Shown in pieces: positions 5 through 58,406 of a stretch of 64,000 nt of DNA (position 1 is the stretch's first letter; each line of letters opens with the position of its first letter). Position numbers and translations under genes: made by a program. The notes below the pieces were generated by a model. It did not search any database. It saw nothing but the letters and a program-made list of their open reading frames with translations, and had not been told where the DNA came from. Origin of the DNA: a virus (taxonomy: Duplodnaviria; Caudoviricetes). The stretch lies in the IMG/VR virus record IMGVR_UViG_2840500688_000001, positions 6,810-70,809 of that record; one strand, written 5' to 3'.

Positions 5-754
5 TTGAAGTTGGCGGACAATGCCAGTGATTTAGGTGAATGTTGGCCCAGCTACCAGCATATTGCTGATCAGTGCGAGATCAGCAAACGGTCCGTAATA
101 GGACACATTAAAGCGCTGGTAGATATGGGCCTGCTTCGTGTCGAAAATCGAATCAGAAACAACGAGAAGCAATCAAATTTATACCATTTGACACTAGATA
201 AATCAAATGATGTAGGTGGTGCAGGAAATGCACTAGGGGGTAGTGCAGGAGATTCACTAGGTGGTGCAGCAGATGCACGAGGGGGTGGTGCAGGAGCTGC
301 ACATAGAATCAGTCACTCTTCTGAACCTATTAGTAGTGGTAGTAGTAATACAGACGAAAATATTTATCAGCAAATTATCGACAAATGGAACGCCGCAGGA
401 TTTACGCCAATTAAAGCAATCACTCCAGGCAGTCAACGCGATAAGTTATTAAAAGCCCGCATCAAGGAATTCACGCTAGAGAAAGTACTTGAGGCAATTG
501 AGATCGCCAGTCAATCCAATTTTTTGAAAGGTGGCGGCGATAAAGGTTGGGTGATGGACTTCACGTGGTTTGTACGCCCTAACAAATTTATTCAAGTTTA
601 TGAAAACAAATATGCCAATCGTCCAGTAGCAGAAGGAGTTAATCATGCAACCCATTCAAGTAATCCAAACCGTAAATTGTCAGCACCCGAACGAGTACGG
701 GCAGCAAATGAGAGAGCAAGAGCGCAAAGAGCAGCGCAGAATCCAAGCGCTTGA
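5..754 (+). CDS. Phage replication initiator (lambda O-like, N-terminal HTH); probably 5'-truncated by the window edge
   Basis: N-terminal 'CWPSYQHIADQCEISKRSV' HTH, internal iteron-coded G/A-rich linker, C-terminal 'DFTWFVRPNKF' typical of phage replisome organisers. Confidence 0.8.
   Translation: MKLADNASDLGECWPSYQHIADQCEISKRSVIGHIKALVDMGLLRVENRIRNNEKQSNLYHLTLDKSNDVGGAGNALGGSAGDSLGGAADARGGGAGAAHRISHSSEPISSGSSNTDENIYQQIIDKWNAAGFTPIKAITPGSQRDKLLKARIKEFTLEKVLEAIEIASQSNFLKGGGDKGWVMDFTWFVRPNKFIQVYENKYANRPVAEGVNHATHSSNPNRKLSAPERVRAANERARAQRAAQNPSA
215..306 (+). repeat. Four iteron-like repeats inside the initiator gene (putative replication origin)
   Basis: GTGCA-N5-T(G/T)CAC units starting at 219, 243, 264 and 288 (spacing 24/21/24), each a small inverted repeat. 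Confidence 0.75.
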
Positions 755-3581: not shown

Positions 3582-3658
3582 GTGCCTTTAGCTCAGTTGG
3601 TTAGAGCACTCGACTCATAATCGAGCGGCCGTTGGTTCGAGTCCAACAAGGCACACCA
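3582..3658 (+). tRNA. tRNA with CAT anticodon, most likely tRNA-Ile2 (lysidine) rather than Met
   Basis: Full cloverleaf: acceptor GTGCCTT/AAGGCAC, D arm GCTC/GAGC, anticodon stem CTCGA/TCGAG with loop CTCATAA, T arm GTTGG-TTCGAGT-CCAAC, encoded CCA. G1-C72 is paired, so not an initiator; C4/C5 in the acceptor stem as in Ile2. Confidence 0.92.
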
Positions 3659-5227: not shown

Positions 5228-5260
5228 AAACGAATGTAGGCAAAGCAGTAGAAGCCTGCT

Positions 5261-5372
5261 AAGACGGCACTGTAAGAAATGCGCCAACACTTCTTACAGT
5301 AGTCAACTGACAGAACCAGTTAACCCATTGCGCATAAACGCAAGGCCGCCCCCTGCAGGGGCAGTAATTTTA
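5261..5372 (+). ncRNA. Conserved four-hairpin leader upstream of com (copy 1); strand of the functional RNA uncertain
   Basis: AAGACGGC + 10-bp stem 5269-5300 (loop ATGCGCCAACAC), AACTG/CAGTT, TTGCG/CGCAA, GCCCC/GGGGC; same architecture with compensatory changes at 56391-56502. Confidence 0.7.
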
Positions 5373-5382
5373 TCAGGTTAAT

Positions 5383-5514
5383 ATGGAAAGAAAAAAGAAA
5401 GTTTTAACAGAAGTGAGATGTGCAAATTGTAATAAGAAGTTATGTGATGCTGAATACAGCGTATTAAAAATAAAATGTCCTAGATGTAAATCTATGAATA
5501 TTTTAAAGAAGTGA
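5383..5514 (+). CDS. com: Com-family zinc-finger translational regulator, 43 aa (not in the ORF track)
   Basis: MERKKKVLTEVRCANCNKKLCDAEYSVLKIKCPRCKSMNILKK; RCxxCNKxL...IKCPRCK is the Mu Com signature. Confidence 0.88.
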   Translation: MERKKKVLTEVRCANCNKKLCDAEYSVLKIKCPRCKSMNILKK

Positions 5515-5535
5515 GTGCCTAGAGCGCCTAATGTT

Positions 5536-5571
5536 GAATGCCTCGAGCATCAAAATAATGAGGTGTTCATG
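5536..5571 (+). promoter_or_regulatory. Com-binding hairpin plus SD-sequestering hairpin at the methyltransferase start
   Basis: GAATGCCTCGAGCATC (Mu site recalled as GAAUGCCUGCGAGCAUC); GAGCATC can alternatively pair with GGTGTTC, covering SD GAGGTG next to ATG 5569. Confidence 0.75.
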
Positions 5572-6360
5572 AAGAAATATACAAAAGCTCCATTACCATT
5601 TTTAGGCCAAAAGAGAAATTGGCTGCGTTTGATTAACGAAATCAATTTTGATCATATGACTGTGATTGATCTATTCGGCGGCAGTGGCATATTGTCGCAT
5701 GAGATCAAAAGAAATAATCCGAATGCTCGTGTGATTTGGAATGATTTTGATAACTATCAGGAGCGATTGAATCAAATTGAACAAACTGAAGCTTTGCGCC
5801 AAAAGATTGCCAAGGCGTGTAGTGTCTTTGAGAAAGGTACGAAATTAAGTGGGGCAGCCAAAGACGGCATACTTAAATTGATTAAAGAATCTGGTACAAC
5901 AGATTTTATTACCGTGTCGAGTTGGCTTTTATTCTCAGGCAATTATTGCCACTCTTTTGATTCATTGGCCAACAAAACATGGTACATCAGCCCGCCTAAA
6001 AATCCGCTGAATGCCGAGGATTACTTATCCAATGTAGAACGTGTCAGGATGGATTATAAAGAGCTTTTGAGTTTATACCCTGGTCATGAAAATACGGTTT
6101 TTATTGTAGATCCGCCGTACATCATGACCAATCAAACGGGATATTCAGCCAAGAATGATGCAAGGTTTAAGCTTGTTGATGCCATTCATTTATTCAAAGA
6201 ATTGGGATCTAGAAAGGCGGTTCTATTTTCTAGTACTAAATCAGAGTCTGATGAGTTATTGGATCTCATGGATATCAATGTGACAGAGCGCCATTCGTTG
6301 ATTGTGAGCCCAATCCCTGATCGAAAATACGAAGATTTATGCTACAGAATTAATTTCTAA
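5569..6360 (+). CDS. N6-adenine DNA methyltransferase (Hin1523/Hia5-like, mom-position)
   Basis: 'APLPFLGQKR', motif I 'DLFGGSG', motif IV 'VDPPY'; ORF 5515-6360, likely start 5569 after GAGGTG. Confidence 0.9.
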   Translation: MKKYTKAPLPFLGQKRNWLRLINEINFDHMTVIDLFGGSGILSHEIKRNNPNARVIWNDFDNYQERLNQIEQTEALRQKIAKACSVFEKGTKLSGAAKDGILKLIKESGTTDFITVSSWLLFSGNYCHSFDSLANKTWYISPPKNPLNAEDYLSNVERVRMDYKELLSLYPGHENTVFIVDPPYIMTNQTGYSAKNDARFKLVDAIHLFKELGSRKAVLFSSTKSESDELLDLMDINVTERHSLIVSPIPDRKYEDLCYRINF

Positions 6361-52692: not shown

Positions 52693-53005
52693 TTATGTGA
52701 TCAATATTACCAATGGTTTAACGCTCAAAAACATCACAGATAACGAGCCCACCATTATTTTATTCACGCGTAGCCACTGCACATCTTCTAAGAAAATGCT
52801 GCACATGCTCGATGAGTTCAGCAAACGTCATTTACACATTGCATGCGTCAATGTAGACATCAGCCCAAACAGCGTTGGGAAGAACATGATGCACCGCTTC
52901 AATATCAAGGTTGCACCTTCTTTTGTTGTGTTCAAACAAGGCAAAGAGGTGAACCGCGGATGTGGCTACACACAGTTTGTGAATTATATGACGAGTGAAA
53001 TGTAA
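52685..53005 (+). CDS. Thioredoxin-fold protein with degenerate CxxS site
   Basis: 'ILFTRSHCTSSKKM', 'VNVD', 'RFNIKVAPSFVVFKQGKEV.R..G' thioredoxin pattern. Confidence 0.7.
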   Translation: MTSYVINITNGLTLKNITDNEPTIILFTRSHCTSSKKMLHMLDEFSKRHLHIACVNVDISPNSVGKNMMHRFNIKVAPSFVVFKQGKEVNRGCGYTQFVNYMTSEM

Positions 53006-55614
53006 TGAAAATGGAACGCAGTCAGAGAGATGAAGTGGTGCGCCGCTTCATCGCAGAAACAGGGGCAAAGCCTCAAGGCAATGGCAAACGCTATAAAAAT
53101 GGCATTTGTCCAAGCTGTCAGAAAAAGAAATTATGGATATTTGGTGATGATCCGTGGAAGATCCAATGTGATAGTACCACGTGCGGTTATGAGATCTCCG
53201 CACGTGATCGTTATCCAGACATCTTTGAAAACTTTTCTAAACGCTATGCCCATGAAATGGCAGAAGATGGCCGCGCAATTGCTAAAGCATACTTGAGGGA
53301 AGCAAGGGGCTTTAACACCACATTGTGTGACCAATTCACGCAAGAAACGTTTTTTGATTATAGCACAAAAGTTTCCACACCAACGGTGCGTTTTCCAATG
53401 CCAGGGGATGGTTATTGGGAACGTCTGATTGAAAACTTGGAAAAGTTTGAGCAAAAAGCCCACTTCAAAAAAGGCTATTCATACAAAGGATTGGCTTGGC
53501 ATTTTAATGATCTTGATGTGACCAAAATTAATGAATTATGGGTGGTTGAAGGGATCTTTGATGCCATTGCATTAAGACATCACAATATTCATGCCATCAG
53601 TGCCATGAGTGCCAATAACTTTCCTGAACACACTTTAACGCAGATCTACCAAAAGAATCCGCGCTTAAATATTGTGATTGCCTTAGATTCAGACGAGAAA
53701 GGCAAACAGTCCGCCATTAAGTGGTTAAAGCTATGTGAAAAAATAGGATTCTTTTCTGACATCCGTTTGGCCATTACCAATGATGGCGATGATTGGAACG
53801 ATAAGCACATCAAAGAGCAATTAGATGATGAAGATATTGAAACCTATCTTCACCATGGCGCAGTGTTATCCGCAAGATCACCGATGCGCAAAGCATATTT
53901 GATGTATCAGCGCTATGAAAAGCAGCAGTTTTTCCTTGAGTTCAATTTCAATACGTATTGGGTCAAAGTGGATGTGAAGGCGATGCTTGAAGCCATCAAT
54001 AAAAACGATGAGGACGAGGAAACGGCATTTAAATCGTCTTGTACCATCACTGAGATCGCCAATTGTGTTACGAATATTCTGTACGCACAAAAAGAGTTGG
54101 ATACCAATGAGTTATTCTACTTTCTTGAAGTGGTCATGAAGAATAAGCGTAATAAAGATGCTTTTTCACCGAAGCAATTGTCCAGCGCGGGCGAGTTCAA
54201 GGCACGTGTGATGAATACGGTGTCAGGTGCGACATTTACAGGTGAAACAAAGCATTTAGATCAAATCTATCGTGTGAAAACGAGTGACATCAAAGACATT
54301 AGCACGGTGCCATTTTTAGGGTATGCCAAAGAGTTGGGTGCATATATTTTCCCTGAGTTTGCCGTTAAAAATGGCCGTGTCTATAAGCTCAATAAGGAAG
54401 AGTATTTTGAGTTGCCAGGGAACCAAAACATTAAGACAACTTTTTCAATGCCTGAGTTTGATCCAAGCATGGACTACCAAAATACATGGCACCAAGATTT
54501 CATTGATGTTTTTGGCCAAAAAGGATTGACGGTTTTAGCGTTTTGGCTCGGCTCATTATTCGTAGAACAATTGCGTGATGTTTATAAAGGCTTTCCATTT
54601 TTGGAACTCACAGGTGAAGCGGGTGCGGGTAAGTCCACCATTTTGCAATTCATGTGGAAACTCTCTGGGCGTGGTGGTGATTATGAAGGGGTCAATCCCA
54701 ATAACGGCTCTAAAGTGGGTTATTTCAGAACATTATCACAAGTGGCCAACTTGCCAACGGTGATGATTGAGTGTGAAGGCTTTAACTTAGAGGATCTCAA
54801 GTCCTTATACAATGGCGGCTACTTGAGAACAACGGGCCAAAAGAATAATGGCAATAACACCAACAGCCCTAAATTCAGAGGTTCATTGATTTTATCCCAA
54901 AATGAGCGAGCCATTACCGCAGGTTCACGCGATAACTTAATTGCGTTGTTGTCCCGCCTTGTTTATGTGCATTTTGATACGAGCAATCACACCTCTGAGT
55001 CACGCATTAAAGCCCGTCGATTAGAACAAATGTCAATGGATGAATTGTCAGGCTTTTTGGTGGAAGCACTTAAAAATGAAGATGCCATCTTAAAGTGTGT
55101 TCACTCAGTTTTTGAACAAAACAGAGCACGCATTATGGCATTGGAAGAGGTGCAAACAACGCGCATTGGCTTGACGCATGGCTTGATGCTCTCATTGTTG
55201 CAGGCTTTGAAGTTTTTAATGCCCATTCCTGAGCACACGTTGCGTGCAACTGAAGAGTACATTTGCCGCATTGCAATTGAACGCGATATTGAACTTAAAC
55301 AAGATCATCCAATTTTAGAACAGTTTTGGGAGGTGTATGAGTATCTCAATAATGAAGGTTTTGCGGTTAATCATTCCAGAAATGATGAGTATATCGCCAT
55401 CAACTTAAATCAGTTTTATGGATTGGCCGCAGAGATGCGCCAGCAGCTTGATGACATTAAAACAGTCAAAAAGATGCTGCCACACACAAGCAGGCACAAA
55501 TACATTGAGCACAATAAAGTTGTGAATTCTAAGTACAACGATGATGAGTACACAACCAGAGCAGGGAAGGGTTTTGGCTCATTGCGTTGTTATATTTTTC
55601 ATAAAGGTAAATAG
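53005..55614 (+). CDS. P4-alpha-like primase-helicase
   Basis: Zn ribbon 'CPSC...C...TCG', TOPRIM 'VVEGIFDA...ALD.D..G', Walker A 'GEAGAGKST'. Confidence 0.88.
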   Translation: MKMERSQRDEVVRRFIAETGAKPQGNGKRYKNGICPSCQKKKLWIFGDDPWKIQCDSTTCGYEISARDRYPDIFENFSKRYAHEMAEDGRAIAKAYLREARGFNTTLCDQFTQETFFDYSTKVSTPTVRFPMPGDGYWERLIENLEKFEQKAHFKKGYSYKGLAWHFNDLDVTKINELWVVEGIFDAIALRHHNIHAISAMSANNFPEHTLTQIYQKNPRLNIVIALDSDEKGKQSAIKWLKLCEKIGFFSDIRLAITNDGDDWNDKHIKEQLDDEDIETYLHHGAVLSARSPMRKAYLMYQRYEKQQFFLEFNFNTYWVKVDVKAMLEAINKNDEDEETAFKSSCTITEIANCVTNILYAQKELDTNELFYFLEVVMKNKRNKDAFSPKQLSSAGEFKARVMNTVSGATFTGETKHLDQIYRVKTSDIKDISTVPFLGYAKELGAYIFPEFAVKNGRVYKLNKEEYFELPGNQNIKTTFSMPEFDPSMDYQNTWHQDFIDVFGQKGLTVLAFWLGSLFVEQLRDVYKGFPFLELTGEAGAGKSTILQFMWKLSGRGGDYEGVNPNNGSKVGYFRTLSQVANLPTVMIECEGFNLEDLKSLYNGGYLRTTGQKNNGNNTNSPKFRGSLILSQNERAITAGSRDNLIALLSRLVYVHFDTSNHTSESRIKARRLEQMSMDELSGFLVEALKNEDAILKCVHSVFEQNRARIMALEEVQTTRIGLTHGLMLSLLQALKFLMPIPEHTLRATEEYICRIAIERDIELKQDHPILEQFWEVYEYLNNEGFAVNHSRNDEYIAINLNQFYGLAAEMRQQLDDIKTVKKMLPHTSRHKYIEHNKVVNSKYNDDEYTTRAGKGFGSLRCYIFHKGK

Positions 55615-55625
55615 GTAGGTGAAAC

Positions 55626-55832
55626 ATGAGTGAAGAAATGAAAAAAGACGATCAATTATTAACGATTAAAGATATTGCAGAGATGTTCCAATTGTCTGTT
55701 GGGCATGTGAAGCAACGAGTTGTCAAACAGCCTGATTTCCCAGCGCCCATTAAGCTGATGAAATATGCGCAGCCGCGTTACAAGCGCTCCGATATTTTGG
55801 CGTTTATTGATAGTCGAAAGGAGAAATATTAA
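55626..55832 (+). CDS. AlpA/excisionase-like HTH protein
   Basis: 'LLTIKDIAEMF', 'PDFPAPIKL...RYKRSDI..FI'. Confidence 0.8.
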   Translation: MSEEMKKDDQLLTIKDIAEMFQLSVGHVKQRVVKQPDFPAPIKLMKYAQPRYKRSDILAFIDSRKEKY

Positions 55833-56020
55833 TGGACAATCAGATCATCAACGAGCGTATTGCTGGCATTGAACGCGTTTTGGCATATCTACAAAAGCAA
55901 AGAATGCAATTGTTTGATCGGCGCAAGATCCAGAAGAGGGAATACAAATTGATCATTGATGAAATCAATGATGCAAAAAGGCGTATTCATAAACTTAAAG
56001 CAGCAATGAAGGGAAATTAA
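55832..56020 (+). CDS. Hypothetical protein
   Basis: Coupled ORF, coiled coil. Confidence 0.5.
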   Translation: MDNQIINERIAGIERVLAYLQKQRMQLFDRRKIQKREYKLIIDEINDAKRRIHKLKAAMKGN

Positions 56021-56135
56021 TGCAGAACTTCACGATTAAATTGGGCGGCTATGAATATGTCATCGCTGCACAATCTTTTGAATTGGCACACTTAGAAGCC
56101 GTTAAACAACATTTAGAATTGGGTAGGGAATTACA

Positions 56136-56378
56136 ATGAGCATGATAGATAAACGCGACAAAACCTCTTACATCATCAACAATCCAGTTAAGAAGTTATT
56201 AAATGAGCATGGCTATATGTTGAGCCGCCACAATACAAAGAGTTTTGATGGGCAGTGGCTTTATAACATCTCAAAAATTAGTTTAGTCGGGATGCAGCAC
56301 ATTGAGCAATTCACACGTAATGGCTTGATGGATGCTTATAACAAGGGGGTGTTGATTCAGATGTTAGAGGATAAATAA
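56136..56378 (+). CDS. Hypothetical protein
   Basis: ORF with AGGGA SD at the end of the early operon. Confidence 0.5.
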   Translation: MSMIDKRDKTSYIINNPVKKLLNEHGYMLSRHNTKSFDGQWLYNISKISLVGMQHIEQFTRNGLMDAYNKGVLIQMLEDK

Positions 56379-56390
56379 AGACGTGAGATA

Positions 56391-56502
56391 AAGACGGCAT
56401 CTAGATCAGCGCACAAACACTGATCTAGATAGCTAACTGCATAACCAGTTATCCCATTGCGCATACACGCAAGACCGCTCCTGGCCAGGAGCAATAATTG
56501 TA
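56391..56502 (+). ncRNA. Conserved four-hairpin leader upstream of com (copy 2)
   Basis: AAGACGGC + 11-bp stem 56399-56430 (loop CGCACAAACA), TAACTG/CAGTTA, TTGCG/CGCAA, GCTCCT/AGGAGC; homologous to 5261-5372. Confidence 0.7.
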
Positions 56503-56514
56503 ACAAAGGTAGTT

Positions 56515-56664
56515 ATGAAAAAGGAATATATCCGCAATAATACGGAAGAAATACGTTGTACACATTGCAACCGCAAGCTTTGTGAGGCAATATATCGGCT
56601 TATTGTAATTAAGTGTCCAAGGTGTAAAACCTTAAATTCACTTAAAAAGGATCCTGAGCGCTAA
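56515..56664 (+). CDS. com: Com-family zinc-finger translational regulator, 49 aa (not in the ORF track)
   Basis: MKKEYIRNNTEEIRCTHCNRKLCEAIYRLIVIKCPRCKTLNSLKKDPER. Confidence 0.88.
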   Translation: MKKEYIRNNTEEIRCTHCNRKLCEAIYRLIVIKCPRCKTLNSLKKDPER

Positions 56665-56678
56665 GAGCGTCTAACTAT

Positions 56679-56715
56679 GCATGCCATGAGCATCTTTAAT
56701 TTGGAGATGCCCATG
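56679..56715 (+). promoter_or_regulatory. Com-binding hairpin plus SD-sequestering hairpin at the methyltransferase start
   Basis: GCATGCCATGAGCATC; GCATCT pairs alternatively with AGATGC overlapping SD GGAG; ATG at 56713. Confidence 0.72.
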
Positions 56716-57501
56716 CGCAAATATCATAAAGCCCCATTACCATTCTTAGGCCAAAAGAGAAATTGGTTACGAAACATTTATGAAATGGATTTCGACAATA
56801 AAACCGTTGTGGATCTATTTGGTGGTAGTGGGATTTTATCTCATGAGATTAAGCGTAATCACCCAACTGCAACGGTTGTATGGAATGATTTTGATGATTA
56901 TCAATCTCGTTTAGATCAATTAGAAAAAACAGAAAGCTTGCGTCAGAATTTACTCGATTTTGGTATGGGTTTAGAAAAAGCTGCACGCATTGATCATGAG
57001 ACCAAAAATAAAATATTATCCATCATTAAAGCATCAGGTTGTACTGATTATTTGACGATTTCTAGTTGGGTATTATTCAGCGGTAATTATTGTCATTCCT
57101 TGGATGAAATTGCCAAAAAGAATTGGTATTTTCGAGTGACTAAAAATCCACTATCTTGTGATGATTATTTAAAAGGTGTGATTCGTGTTCAGAAGGATTT
57201 TAGAGCGTTATTGGCTAAGTATCAGCATAAAGAGAACGTGATTTTTATTGCGGATCCGCCATATATTATGACGAATCAGCAAGGTTATATTCCTGATAAA
57301 AATGATGATAACTTCAAACTCCGTGATGCAATTGCCTTAATCAAAGCCCTTAAAGGGCAGAATGCTATTTTATTTTCTAGCACTAAATCTGAAACGGATG
57401 ATTTATTAGAAGCCTTTGATGTGCCCATCACCAAACGAATGGCTTATCAGGCTTCATCTGGTGAGGGCAGGAAATACACGGAGTTGATGTATGTGATGTA
57501 G
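56713..57501 (+). CDS. N6-adenine DNA methyltransferase (Hin1523/Hia5-like, mom-position)
   Basis: 'APLPFLGQKR', 'DLFGGSG', 'ADPPY'; homologue of 5569-6360; ORF 56677-57501, likely start 56713. Confidence 0.9.
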   Translation: MRKYHKAPLPFLGQKRNWLRNIYEMDFDNKTVVDLFGGSGILSHEIKRNHPTATVVWNDFDDYQSRLDQLEKTESLRQNLLDFGMGLEKAARIDHETKNKILSIIKASGCTDYLTISSWVLFSGNYCHSLDEIAKKNWYFRVTKNPLSCDDYLKGVIRVQKDFRALLAKYQHKENVIFIADPPYIMTNQQGYIPDKNDDNFKLRDAIALIKALKGQNAILFSSTKSETDDLLEAFDVPITKRMAYQASSGEGRKYTELMYVM

Positions 57502-57504
57502 GTG

Positions 57505-58371
57505 TTATTGAACTTCTATCATTTCAAGTTGAAAGTTATGTGAATCATCTTTAATTTGATAAAACTTAACGTGAGTATCTTTAAATATACAGCGTAGGTA
57601 TCTTTTATGATGTTTATTCATCTTTGATCCAAAATAAATTGCAGTTACAGCGGATTGGTTATATGAAAAAAAACGATTATTTAATTCTCCACTTCTAAAA
57701 ATTAATCGTATCTCATTTTCATAAGACCATGATGATGATTTTCTTGTTAATATTTGAGTTAGGAATTTTTCATATTTTGCTAGCAGATGATTGGTTAGAA
57801 CTTGAGTATCTGTAAAGATTAATTCTTCTTCTTTTTTGATAAAGTCATTGAAGTAAATTTTCTTTGTTTCTGTTGTATATTCTACCTCTTCTAGTTTTTT
57901 ATTTGGTGCGAGGATTTCTGAATCATATTCTATTACAAATCCTTGAGACCCATTAGCGTAATGTGCCCACATTAATTCATTTGAAGCTGTATTGGTTAAA
58001 GAATAAATACCTGAGTTTTCTATAACTATATCTATTTGGCTTTTAAGTTGATTAAATAATAGCTCATCTACCTGTTGGATTATTAATTTACATTTATTTC
58101 TTTCTTGTATGTCTTTCATAAAAACCGAAGGAGTATTCAGTGTTTTTTCTGCTAATTCATAAAGGATTTTTAACTCAGGATTAAGTTGTATCATTGTTTT
58201 GCGAACTTCATTGTTAATATCTAATTTGAGCGCATTTATATCTATAGCTCCCTCTCTTGAGTCATTTAACTGATTTAGAGTAGGTACATATATTTCATTT
58301 CTAGATAATGTTTTAAAATGATATTTTTCAATGCCTTGGTATTTATAAACTTTCATGTCATTCAATTCCAT
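57505..58371 (-). CDS. DUF2971-like protein
   Basis: 'YKY', 'NDSREG', 'LMWAHYAN...GFVIEY', 'KS..WSYENEIR'. Confidence 0.8.
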   Translation of the reverse strand: MELNDMKVYKYQGIEKYHFKTLSRNEIYVPTLNQLNDSREGAIDINALKLDINNEVRKTMIQLNPELKILYELAEKTLNTPSVFMKDIQERNKCKLIIQQVDELLFNQLKSQIDIVIENSGIYSLTNTASNELMWAHYANGSQGFVIEYDSEILAPNKKLEEVEYTTETKKIYFNDFIKKEEELIFTDTQVLTNHLLAKYEKFLTQILTRKSSSWSYENEIRLIFRSGELNNRFFSYNQSAVTAIYFGSKMNKHHKRYLRCIFKDTHVKFYQIKDDSHNFQLEMIEVQ

Positions 58372-58406
58372 TGTAATTTTAGTTAGATCTAGTTTGAGAT
58401 TAGTAA

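Follow-up and report, generated by a model that had tools for sequence, protein, structure and literature searches.

A predicted structured small RNA gene opposite com in DNA-modification cassettes of temperate phages

The window analyzed here is the whole 64,000-nucleotide stretch of an IMG/VR provirus record from Wohlfahrtiimonas, and it carries the same cassette twice (Table 1). In each cassette, a com gene and a gene for a D12-class DNA methyltransferase (MTase) follow one another on the plus strand, with a structured element just upstream of com. The first cassette has an M15 endolysin on one side and holin/Rz genes on the other, within a terminase-bearing phage; a tRNA gene (3582-3655, 74.7 bits in Rfam) lies upstream of the phage lysis region. 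The second comes after a primase and small genes, beside reverse-strand cargo, and has a satellite-like look. Specifically, positions 53005-58400 hold an 869-aa Toprim primase, an AlpA-like small DNA-binding ORF, small ORFs, the com-MTase pair, and then the reverse-strand cargo. Since copy 2 lies in a satellite-like element, the single “provirus” record seems to correspond to two mobile elements, and each of these apparent elements has its own cassette of predicted small RNA, com, and MTase.

The similarity between the two copies starts at AAGACGGC and continues through com and the methyltransferase (alignment A1). Relatives of the copy 1 methyltransferase were found in Haemophilus phage SuMu and the Moraxella Mcat phages, and enzymes of the Hia5/Hin1523/Nma1821 type are described by Drozdz et al. 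2012 (PMC3299994) as non-specific adenine methylases of Mu-like prophages. The spacers between com and the methyltransferase gene (5515-5568 and 56665-56712) contain conserved GAGCGYC repeats and an RYGC-CNNNGA-GCRY hairpin right before the methylase ribosome-binding site; these are common to Wohlfahrtiimonas, Ignatzschineria, and Neisseria loci and are compatible with a Mu-type Com target. A blastn search with the cassette returned no match in the phage collection or in E. coli genomes.

The element was initially annotated as a four-hairpin leader of com, at 5261-5372 and 56391-56502, and the sequence features quoted in that annotation are indeed present at both sites. Its first hairpin has a perfect stem of 10-11 bp, the sequence of which is unrelated between the copies, around a similar loop. 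The annotation proposed a comparison with Rfam, in which no family reached its gathering score at the element, so that the element is uncatalogued: at the gathering threshold of Rfam 15, only the tRNA elsewhere in the window passes, and with E values up to 10 the best match on the element is AS-pc01 on the minus strand, at a chance-level 21 bits against a gathering score of 79. AS-pc01 was also the sole Rfam match on the element under E = 1. Readings as a tRNA-like cloverleaf, an integron attC site, a retron, or a ribozyme were considered and dropped, as they came without a supporting model match or partner gene.

Table 1. Positions in the window of the cassette genes, the plus-strand sequence parts of the element, and the predicted features of the minus-strand small RNA gene
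Feature	Copy	Position	Strand	Remarks
Motif AAGACGGC	1	5261-5268	+	
Stem arms ACTGTAAGAA/TTCTTACAGT	1	5269-5278/5291-5300	+	
AACTG/CAGTT	1	5305-5309/5317-5321	+	
TTGCG/CGCAA	1	5328-5332/5339-5343	+	
GCCCC/GGGGC	1	within 5348-5362	+	
Counterparts of these parts	2	56390-56492	+	Stem 1 completely different; GCTCC/GGAGC replaces GCCCC/GGGGC, a compensatory change
Predicted small RNA, ~105 nt	1	5254-5360	-	Fold z -6.1; model R2, 88 bits, E 2e-20
Extended -10, TGATAAAAT	1	5367-5375	-	Family consensus; 8 nt upstream of the com ATG (other strand)
Perfect zero-spacer palindrome, CCCCTGCAGGGG (fourth hairpin of the initial annotation)	1	5350-5361	-	About +1 to +12; 5' hairpin
P1, 5' strand, GGGGCGGC	1	5345-5352	-	Pairs with 5261-5268 (MFE structure)
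Internal hairpin (plus strand, TTGCG...CGCAA)	1	5328-5343	-	Optional in the family; absent from most Neisseriaceae copies
Internal hairpin 2 (plus strand, AACTG...CAGTT)	1	5305-5321	-	Covaries across the family
Terminator hairpin (first hairpin of the initial annotation)	1	5269-5300	-	Hypervariable perfect stem, conserved top GUGUUNNCGCA; 11 of 11 pairs change on both sides
P1, 3' strand, and terminator tail, GCCGUCUUAGCAGGC	1	5254-5268	-	Complement of AAGACGGC
com (43-aa Zn-ribbon protein)	1	5383-5514	+	Pfam PF10122, 1.4e-8; divergent from predicted small RNA copy 1
D12-class N6-adenine DNA methyltransferase, Hia5/Hin1523/Nma1821-like	1	5569-6360	+	Pfam PF02086
Predicted small RNA	2	56384-56490	-	Fold z -4.2; model R2, 77 bits, E 1.6e-17
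Extended -10, TGTTACAAT	2	56497-56505	-	Family consensus
Perfect 16-nt palindrome, GCTCCTGGCCAGGAGC	2	56477-56492	-	Predicted 5' end of the small RNA
Terminator hairpin, then CCGTCTTTAT	2	56398-56431	-	Flagged by terminator scan on the minus strand
com	2	56515-56664	+	Pfam PF10122, 3.6e-10
D12-class DNA methyltransferase	2	56713-57501	+	Pfam PF02086

The proposed covariation of the stems held when the comparison was extended from two copies to 43 homologues: 24 of the 27 pairs change on both sides, and none of 500 shuffles reached the observed score. We built covariance models for the plus strand (R1) and the minus strand (R2). When the 43 sequences were aligned to R2, 96.2% of the pair cells were standard, compared with only 34-57% in slid controls, with the caveat that this alignment (A8) was fitted to the model and its pair counts are therefore biased towards structure. 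Compensatory changes in the model-fitted alignment thus support the helices beyond both the shuffled and the slid controls. In the RNAalifold prediction for the minus-strand alignment A7, a hairpin at the 5' end is accompanied by internal hairpins, a terminator hairpin, and the helix P1 (GGCGGC/GCCGUC), which closes a three- or four-way junction. The closing helix is 99% paired, with G-C changed to A-U in 8 sequences and C-G changed to U-A in 2 (RNAalifold, pair counts). Since the strands of P1 lie ~85-100 nt apart and yet covary, a purely local DNA palindrome is ruled out for this helix.

The same base pairs are far better on the minus strand, a point that the initial annotation had missed. 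Among 48 distinct homologues, the minus-strand fold is more stable in all 48, with a mean of -52.5 kcal/mol versus -41.5 kcal/mol on the plus strand, and it contains 3-9 G-U pairs per homologue versus 0-5. For the same bases of copy 1, we obtained -55.4 kcal/mol (z -6.1) on the minus strand and -35.8 kcal/mol (z -3.35) on the plus strand; for copy 2, the values were -42.9 kcal/mol (z -4.2) and -31.8 kcal/mol (z -3.9). The 1145 consensus pair cells of the 43 sequences, counted in the same model-fitted alignment, include 960 Watson-Crick, 141 G-U, and 16 A-C cells on the minus strand. Given these 141 G-U versus 16 A-C cells, the pairs that are 96.2% paired on the minus strand are only 85% paired on the plus strand, where the 141 cells become A-C mismatches.

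The two ends of the element point in the same direction. Its plus-strand 5' motif varies (AAGAC, AAAAC, or AAAGC), and in Neisseriaceae a hairpin that follows the upstream genes ends a few bases before AAGACGGC, which leaves no space for a promoter there. At the other end, a conserved box, ATTnTAnCA, lies immediately before com and reads TGnTAnAAT on the minus strand, the form of an extended -10 element. Its counts over the 48 distinct homologues are T41 G43 n T48 A47 n A38 A43 T48, and across the family it precedes the com start codon by 8-25 nt, pointing away from com. The structured part begins 5-8 nt past the -10 hexamer throughout the family, and from this motif the small RNA is predicted to start near 5360 in copy 1 and near 56490 in copy 2. 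A scan for two-hexamer sigma-70 promoters, which does not model extended -10 elements, found no promoter on either strand.

On the minus strand, AAGACGGC reads GCCGUCUU and directly follows the long variable stem; the two are therefore best viewed as an intrinsic terminator with its tail, which ends at ~5254 in copy 1 and ~56384 in copy 2. U-rich tails occur across the family (alignment A7), e.g., GUCUUUAU, GUUUUAC, GCUUUUAU, and GUCUUAGUUUUUU. The terminator scan that flagged copy 2 did not flag copy 1, in which the U-tract is weak (GUCUUAGC). The similarity between cassettes stops exactly at the terminator tail (alignment A1), and the hairpin that lies beyond the tail at Neisseriaceae loci likewise shows a U-run when read on the minus strand. 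At the top of the terminator hairpin, the sequence GUGUUNNCGCA is conserved, yet inverted in two lineages: the loop (TGCGNNAACAC on the plus strand) appears as its reverse complement in Ignatzschineria (L007:1180-1210) and in Neisseriaceae (L084/L092), as a small inversion between perfect inverted repeats. A second site in Neisseria sp. Ec49-e6-T10 (L071:1501-1545) has a lone module of the first hairpin, with loop GTGCGCCAACAC as in window copy 1; neither com nor the remaining parts of the element occur there.

Altogether, the computed evidence covers the strand, the promoter and the terminator (both motif-level calls), the structure with its covariation, and the linkage to com or modification genes, and on this basis the element is best read as a small RNA gene that faces away from com on the opposite strand. 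The initial annotation was right in pointing to an uncatalogued RNA element that is conserved, covaries, and is tied to com and the methyltransferase. Its cis-acting, plus-strand 5' leader of com is not supported, given the A-C cells (141 of 1145 on the plus strand), the more stable minus-strand fold in 48/48 homologues, and the presence on the minus strand of a conserved extended -10 at the right distance together with a terminator with a U-rich tail. An antisense target was among the options listed in that annotation, and the element is now read as an antisense small RNA gene.

The predicted 5' end of the RNA has a further property. The first helix is always a perfect zero-spacer palindrome, and in the family we counted 17 distinct versions, each perfect over 10 nt or more, that begin 5-8 nt after the -10 hexamer, with the centers TGCA, TCGA, CGCG, GTAC, CTAG, GGCC, and TATA. 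They resemble 6-bp restriction sites (CTGCAG, CTCGAG, TCGCGA, TGTACA, CCTAGG, TGGCCA, TCTAGA, and GAGCTC). The palindrome sequence is independent of the methylase type, since the same palindrome accompanies a Dam-type and a C5-type enzyme (L088 versus L091); we therefore rejected the idea that it is the recognition site of the methylase itself. Further occurrences of the stem-1 arms or the palindromes, which could have been operators or trans targets, were also sought in the rest of the window, and none were found beyond chance. Because a hairpin in RNA can form without self-complementarity in its loop, a role at the DNA level (a cruciform or a dimeric protein) or in RNA dimerization is possible. 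The perfect palindrome at +1 looks like a DNA-level feature, which a small RNA gene by itself does not explain.

Beyond the window, locus searches based on the methyltransferase showed that W. larvae, Ignatzschineria, and a Neisseria species have this element upstream as well. R1 matched in 7 of 52 genomes of the Wohlfahrtiimonas order, in 17 of 151 Neisseriaceae genomes, and in 25 IMG/VR phage contigs preselected by a motif scan; in such scans of viral contigs, a pattern from hairpins 2 and 3 gave 44 chance matches and 1 true match, and a pattern on the terminator top gave 25 true matches out of 49. In nearly all matches, a com-like gene begins 8-25 nt beyond the element. The genes behind com encode a Hia5-like or Dam-like D12 methylase, a C5 methylase, or a P-loop + GNAT protein, and with the cargo varying in this manner, the element goes with com and DNA-modification cargo rather than with one enzyme.

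Searches with R2 found matches in Moraxella phage Mcat1, Burkholderia phages AP3 and phiE255, Curvibacter phage TJ1, and Pseudomonas phages UMP151 and B3, along with a weak match in Haemophilus phage SuMu. In these phages, the match is always on the strand opposite to com, just upstream of com. A random sample of 150 Gammaproteobacteria yielded two further matches (L147 and L148), in which the element is divergent from a Dam-type methylase, without com. The element occurs in unrelated phage types (lambdoid, Mu-like, P2-like, and satellite). R2 had no match in Escherichia phage Chuche, in two Ralstonia phages, or at an Ignatzschineria locus where com directly adjoins its upstream gene.

Several of these loci have features of their own. 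At L077:203-1267 on the minus strand (Neisseriaceae G121; similarly L075 and L085), com is followed by a ~50-aa protein and a 355-aa P-loop + GNAT protein, with Pfam domains PF13508/PF00583 and a weak ABC P-loop match, which may represent another enzyme controlled by Com that, like Mom, makes an acyl-type modification of nucleic acids. In Pseudomonas phage B3, ORF45 and ORF46 (L155:452-677) overlap the predicted small RNA gene (R2, 572-699, minus strand); both are tiny and hypothetical and may be spurious calls. Three loci (L076, L087, and L093) have, on the com strand ~20-30 nt before the element, a strong Shine-Dalgarno sequence and a two-codon ORF (ATG ACT TAA, ATG ATT TAG, or ATG ACA TAG), as if the cassette, on inserting, had displaced a gene and left its decapitated start behind.

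Toxicity and tight control characterize the orphan DNA-modification enzymes of phages, among them Mom and non-specific adenine methylases of the Hia5 type. The known control layers are transcriptional (C, Dam/OxyR, Fis, and momP2) and translational (Com). Cis-encoded antisense RNAs are likewise known to restrain harmful mobile-element genes, as in IS10 RNA-OUT/RNA-IN, hok/sok, and the plasmid countertranscripts (CopA). The element resembles the latter systems in that a small, highly structured RNA, with its own constitutive promoter and its own terminator, is predicted opposite the 5' region of a toxic-gene transcript in a shared cassette. It differs from them in that the RNA misses the ribosome-binding site and start codon of its neighbor, and in having a multi-helix junction, a closing helix that includes the terminator tail, and a perfect palindrome at its 5' end; there is no sequence or model similarity to these systems, in line with the lack of any Rfam 15 match at threshold.

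The resemblance to the mom region of phage Mu is of another kind: in both, com heads a toxic-modification operon, and a divergent promoter, here a predicted one, overlaps the com/mom promoter region and would compete for RNA polymerase as part of a multi-layered control. In Mu without C, RNA polymerase is recruited to the divergent overlapping promoter momP2, which competes with Pmom (PMC3378877). A structured, terminated momP2 RNA is not described in that paper. Upstream of com, Mu has three GATC sites (Dam/OxyR) and a C site, TTAT-N6-ATAA; the GATC and C sites are absent from the window element, Mu has no R2 match, and the cargo here is usually a methyltransferase, not Mom. The statement in the initial annotation that the Mu Com mechanism does not account for the element was right. 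The modules of com with Hia5/Hin1523/Nma1821 consist of the same two genes and presumably rely on Com for translation in the same way; the searched passages of PMC3299994 discuss Com sites at the 5' end of the methylase gene and mention no element upstream of com. In the literature, with the N. meningitidis prophage small RNA NMnc0031 outside the comparison, we found no description of a small RNA beside com or phage methylases. The element is best explained as an uncatalogued RNA family of a familiar kind, i.e., an antisense RNA guarding a harmful mobile-element gene, that is widespread in temperate phages of Beta- and Gammaproteobacteria.

We propose that the element is an independent gene for a ~105-nt structured small RNA on the minus strand, opposite com, which acts as a gate on the com cassette, and we put the probability of this reading at roughly 70%. 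The production of the RNA, its target, and the sign of the regulation, negative or positive, are inferred. Transcription would start at the extended -10 sigma-70 promoter and run away from com, giving an RNA with a short palindromic hairpin, then the junction closed by GGCGGC/GCCGUC, the long terminator hairpin, and a U-rich tail. We found no conserved plus-strand promoter in or upstream of the element; in the window, no terminator on that strand separates com from the late gene that precedes it, and the extra hairpins of Neisseriaceae loci are oriented to stop minus-strand transcription. Transcription of com and its cargo thus probably comes from late operons by read-through, in which case the small RNA gene would lie antisense in an intercistronic stretch that late-operon transcription crosses on its way to com and the modification gene.

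With such read-through, the small RNA would be fully complementary to the stretch just 5' of com, and its promoter shares DNA with the com ribosome-binding region; these considerations lead us to propose a two-part gate, consisting of antisense pairing and of convergent or occluding RNA polymerase. In the first part, the small RNA would pair with the complementary read-through transcript, resulting in duplex formation or processing. In the second, transcription heading for com would be impeded by RNA polymerase that occupies the small RNA promoter or initiates there; the competition of momP2 with Pmom in Mu is a partial precedent. Such a gate would suppress leaky expression of the toxic enzyme, and only strong late transcription would overcome it, after which Com would serve as the known translational key. 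The silencing of com-MTase in the lysogen, which the initial annotation had suggested, could in this way be due to the small RNA. As the com ribosome-binding site lies outside the RNA, antisense action requires that com be transcribed from a start upstream of the element, and the absence of a promoter or terminator on the plus strand hints at such a start. Duplex prediction between the small RNA and the com/MTase mRNA at 43 loci, a crude method, gave no score beyond shuffles and no consistent site.

Three other explanations were weighed against this proposal. The first is that the minus-strand small RNA is real and acts in trans on host or other phage mRNAs, or binds a protein, and is merely co-inherited with com. 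In its favor, the junction and the terminator top GUGUUNNCGCA are conserved beyond the needs of simple antisense pairing, and the com ribosome-binding site is not covered by the RNA. However, co-inheritance alone fits poorly with the invariant position of the element, the -10 of which stays 8-25 nt from the start codon of com or the modification gene in unrelated phage types and with different cargo, and no trans target was found in the com/MTase mRNA, albeit in a weak test. We consider this explanation unlikely.

Less probable still is the plus-strand leader, in which hairpins in the 5' UTR of the com mRNA would form an attenuator, a riboswitch-like switch, or a protein-binding site. The plus strands do fold better than shuffles (z -3.7 for copy 1 and -4.6 for copy 2), the element would be part of the com mRNA if com is reached by read-through, the stems being complementary on either strand, and the 5' GACGGC has alternative proximal and distal pairing partners. 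Against this stand the excess of A-C cells on the plus strand (141 versus 16), its lower stability in every one of the 48 homologues, and the conserved box, which fits an extended -10 on the minus strand and not a plus-strand element. In addition, no U-tract follows the long hairpin on the plus strand, and no conserved plus-strand promoter lies upstream. For a riboswitch or attenuator in particular, the GC-rich palindrome lacks a proper plus-strand U-run, and pairing with the ribosome-binding site occurs in copy 1 only.

Finally, a region acting solely as DNA, in which the dyads are operators or cruciform sites for proteins that control a com promoter and RNA structure is irrelevant, would accommodate the perfect zero-spacer palindrome at +1, with its 17 distinct versions that an RNA hairpin does not need, and the first-hairpin loop inverted in two lineages (L007 and L084), but is highly improbable given the strand-specific G-U/A-C bias, the covariation of P1 over ~85-100 nt, a palindrome sequence that does not track the modification-gene type (L088 versus L091), and palindromes that differ between the two cassettes of one genome and are unrepeated elsewhere in the phage, which leaves no shared operator.

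The antisense small RNA gene, its promoter, and the palindrome at +1 could also be taken together as a portable two-way switch, which with Com would form a general, self-contained “double lock” on modification enzymes. In such a switch, the palindrome, through cruciform extrusion or a dimeric protein, would decide whether the small RNA promoter fires or transcription passes into com. We regard this extension of our proposal as doubtful; if true, the double lock would let any phage or satellite carry otherwise lethal modification enzymes of the m6A, m5C, or GNAT type.

The strand assignment carries a warning for annotation, namely that hairpins ahead of a gene may belong to the other strand. 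If real, the small RNA gene would also explain spurious small ORF calls in the gap before com, such as ORF45 and ORF46 of B3. Cultured phages with a predicted small RNA gene are B3, phiE255, AP3, Mcat1, and possibly SuMu. If the small RNA is real, it would add an RNA layer to the control of com cassettes in temperate phages of Beta- and Gammaproteobacteria and would provide a testable model for how the cassette is kept silent as it moves among widely differing phage backbones, two of which, a prophage and a satellite-like element, share one genome.
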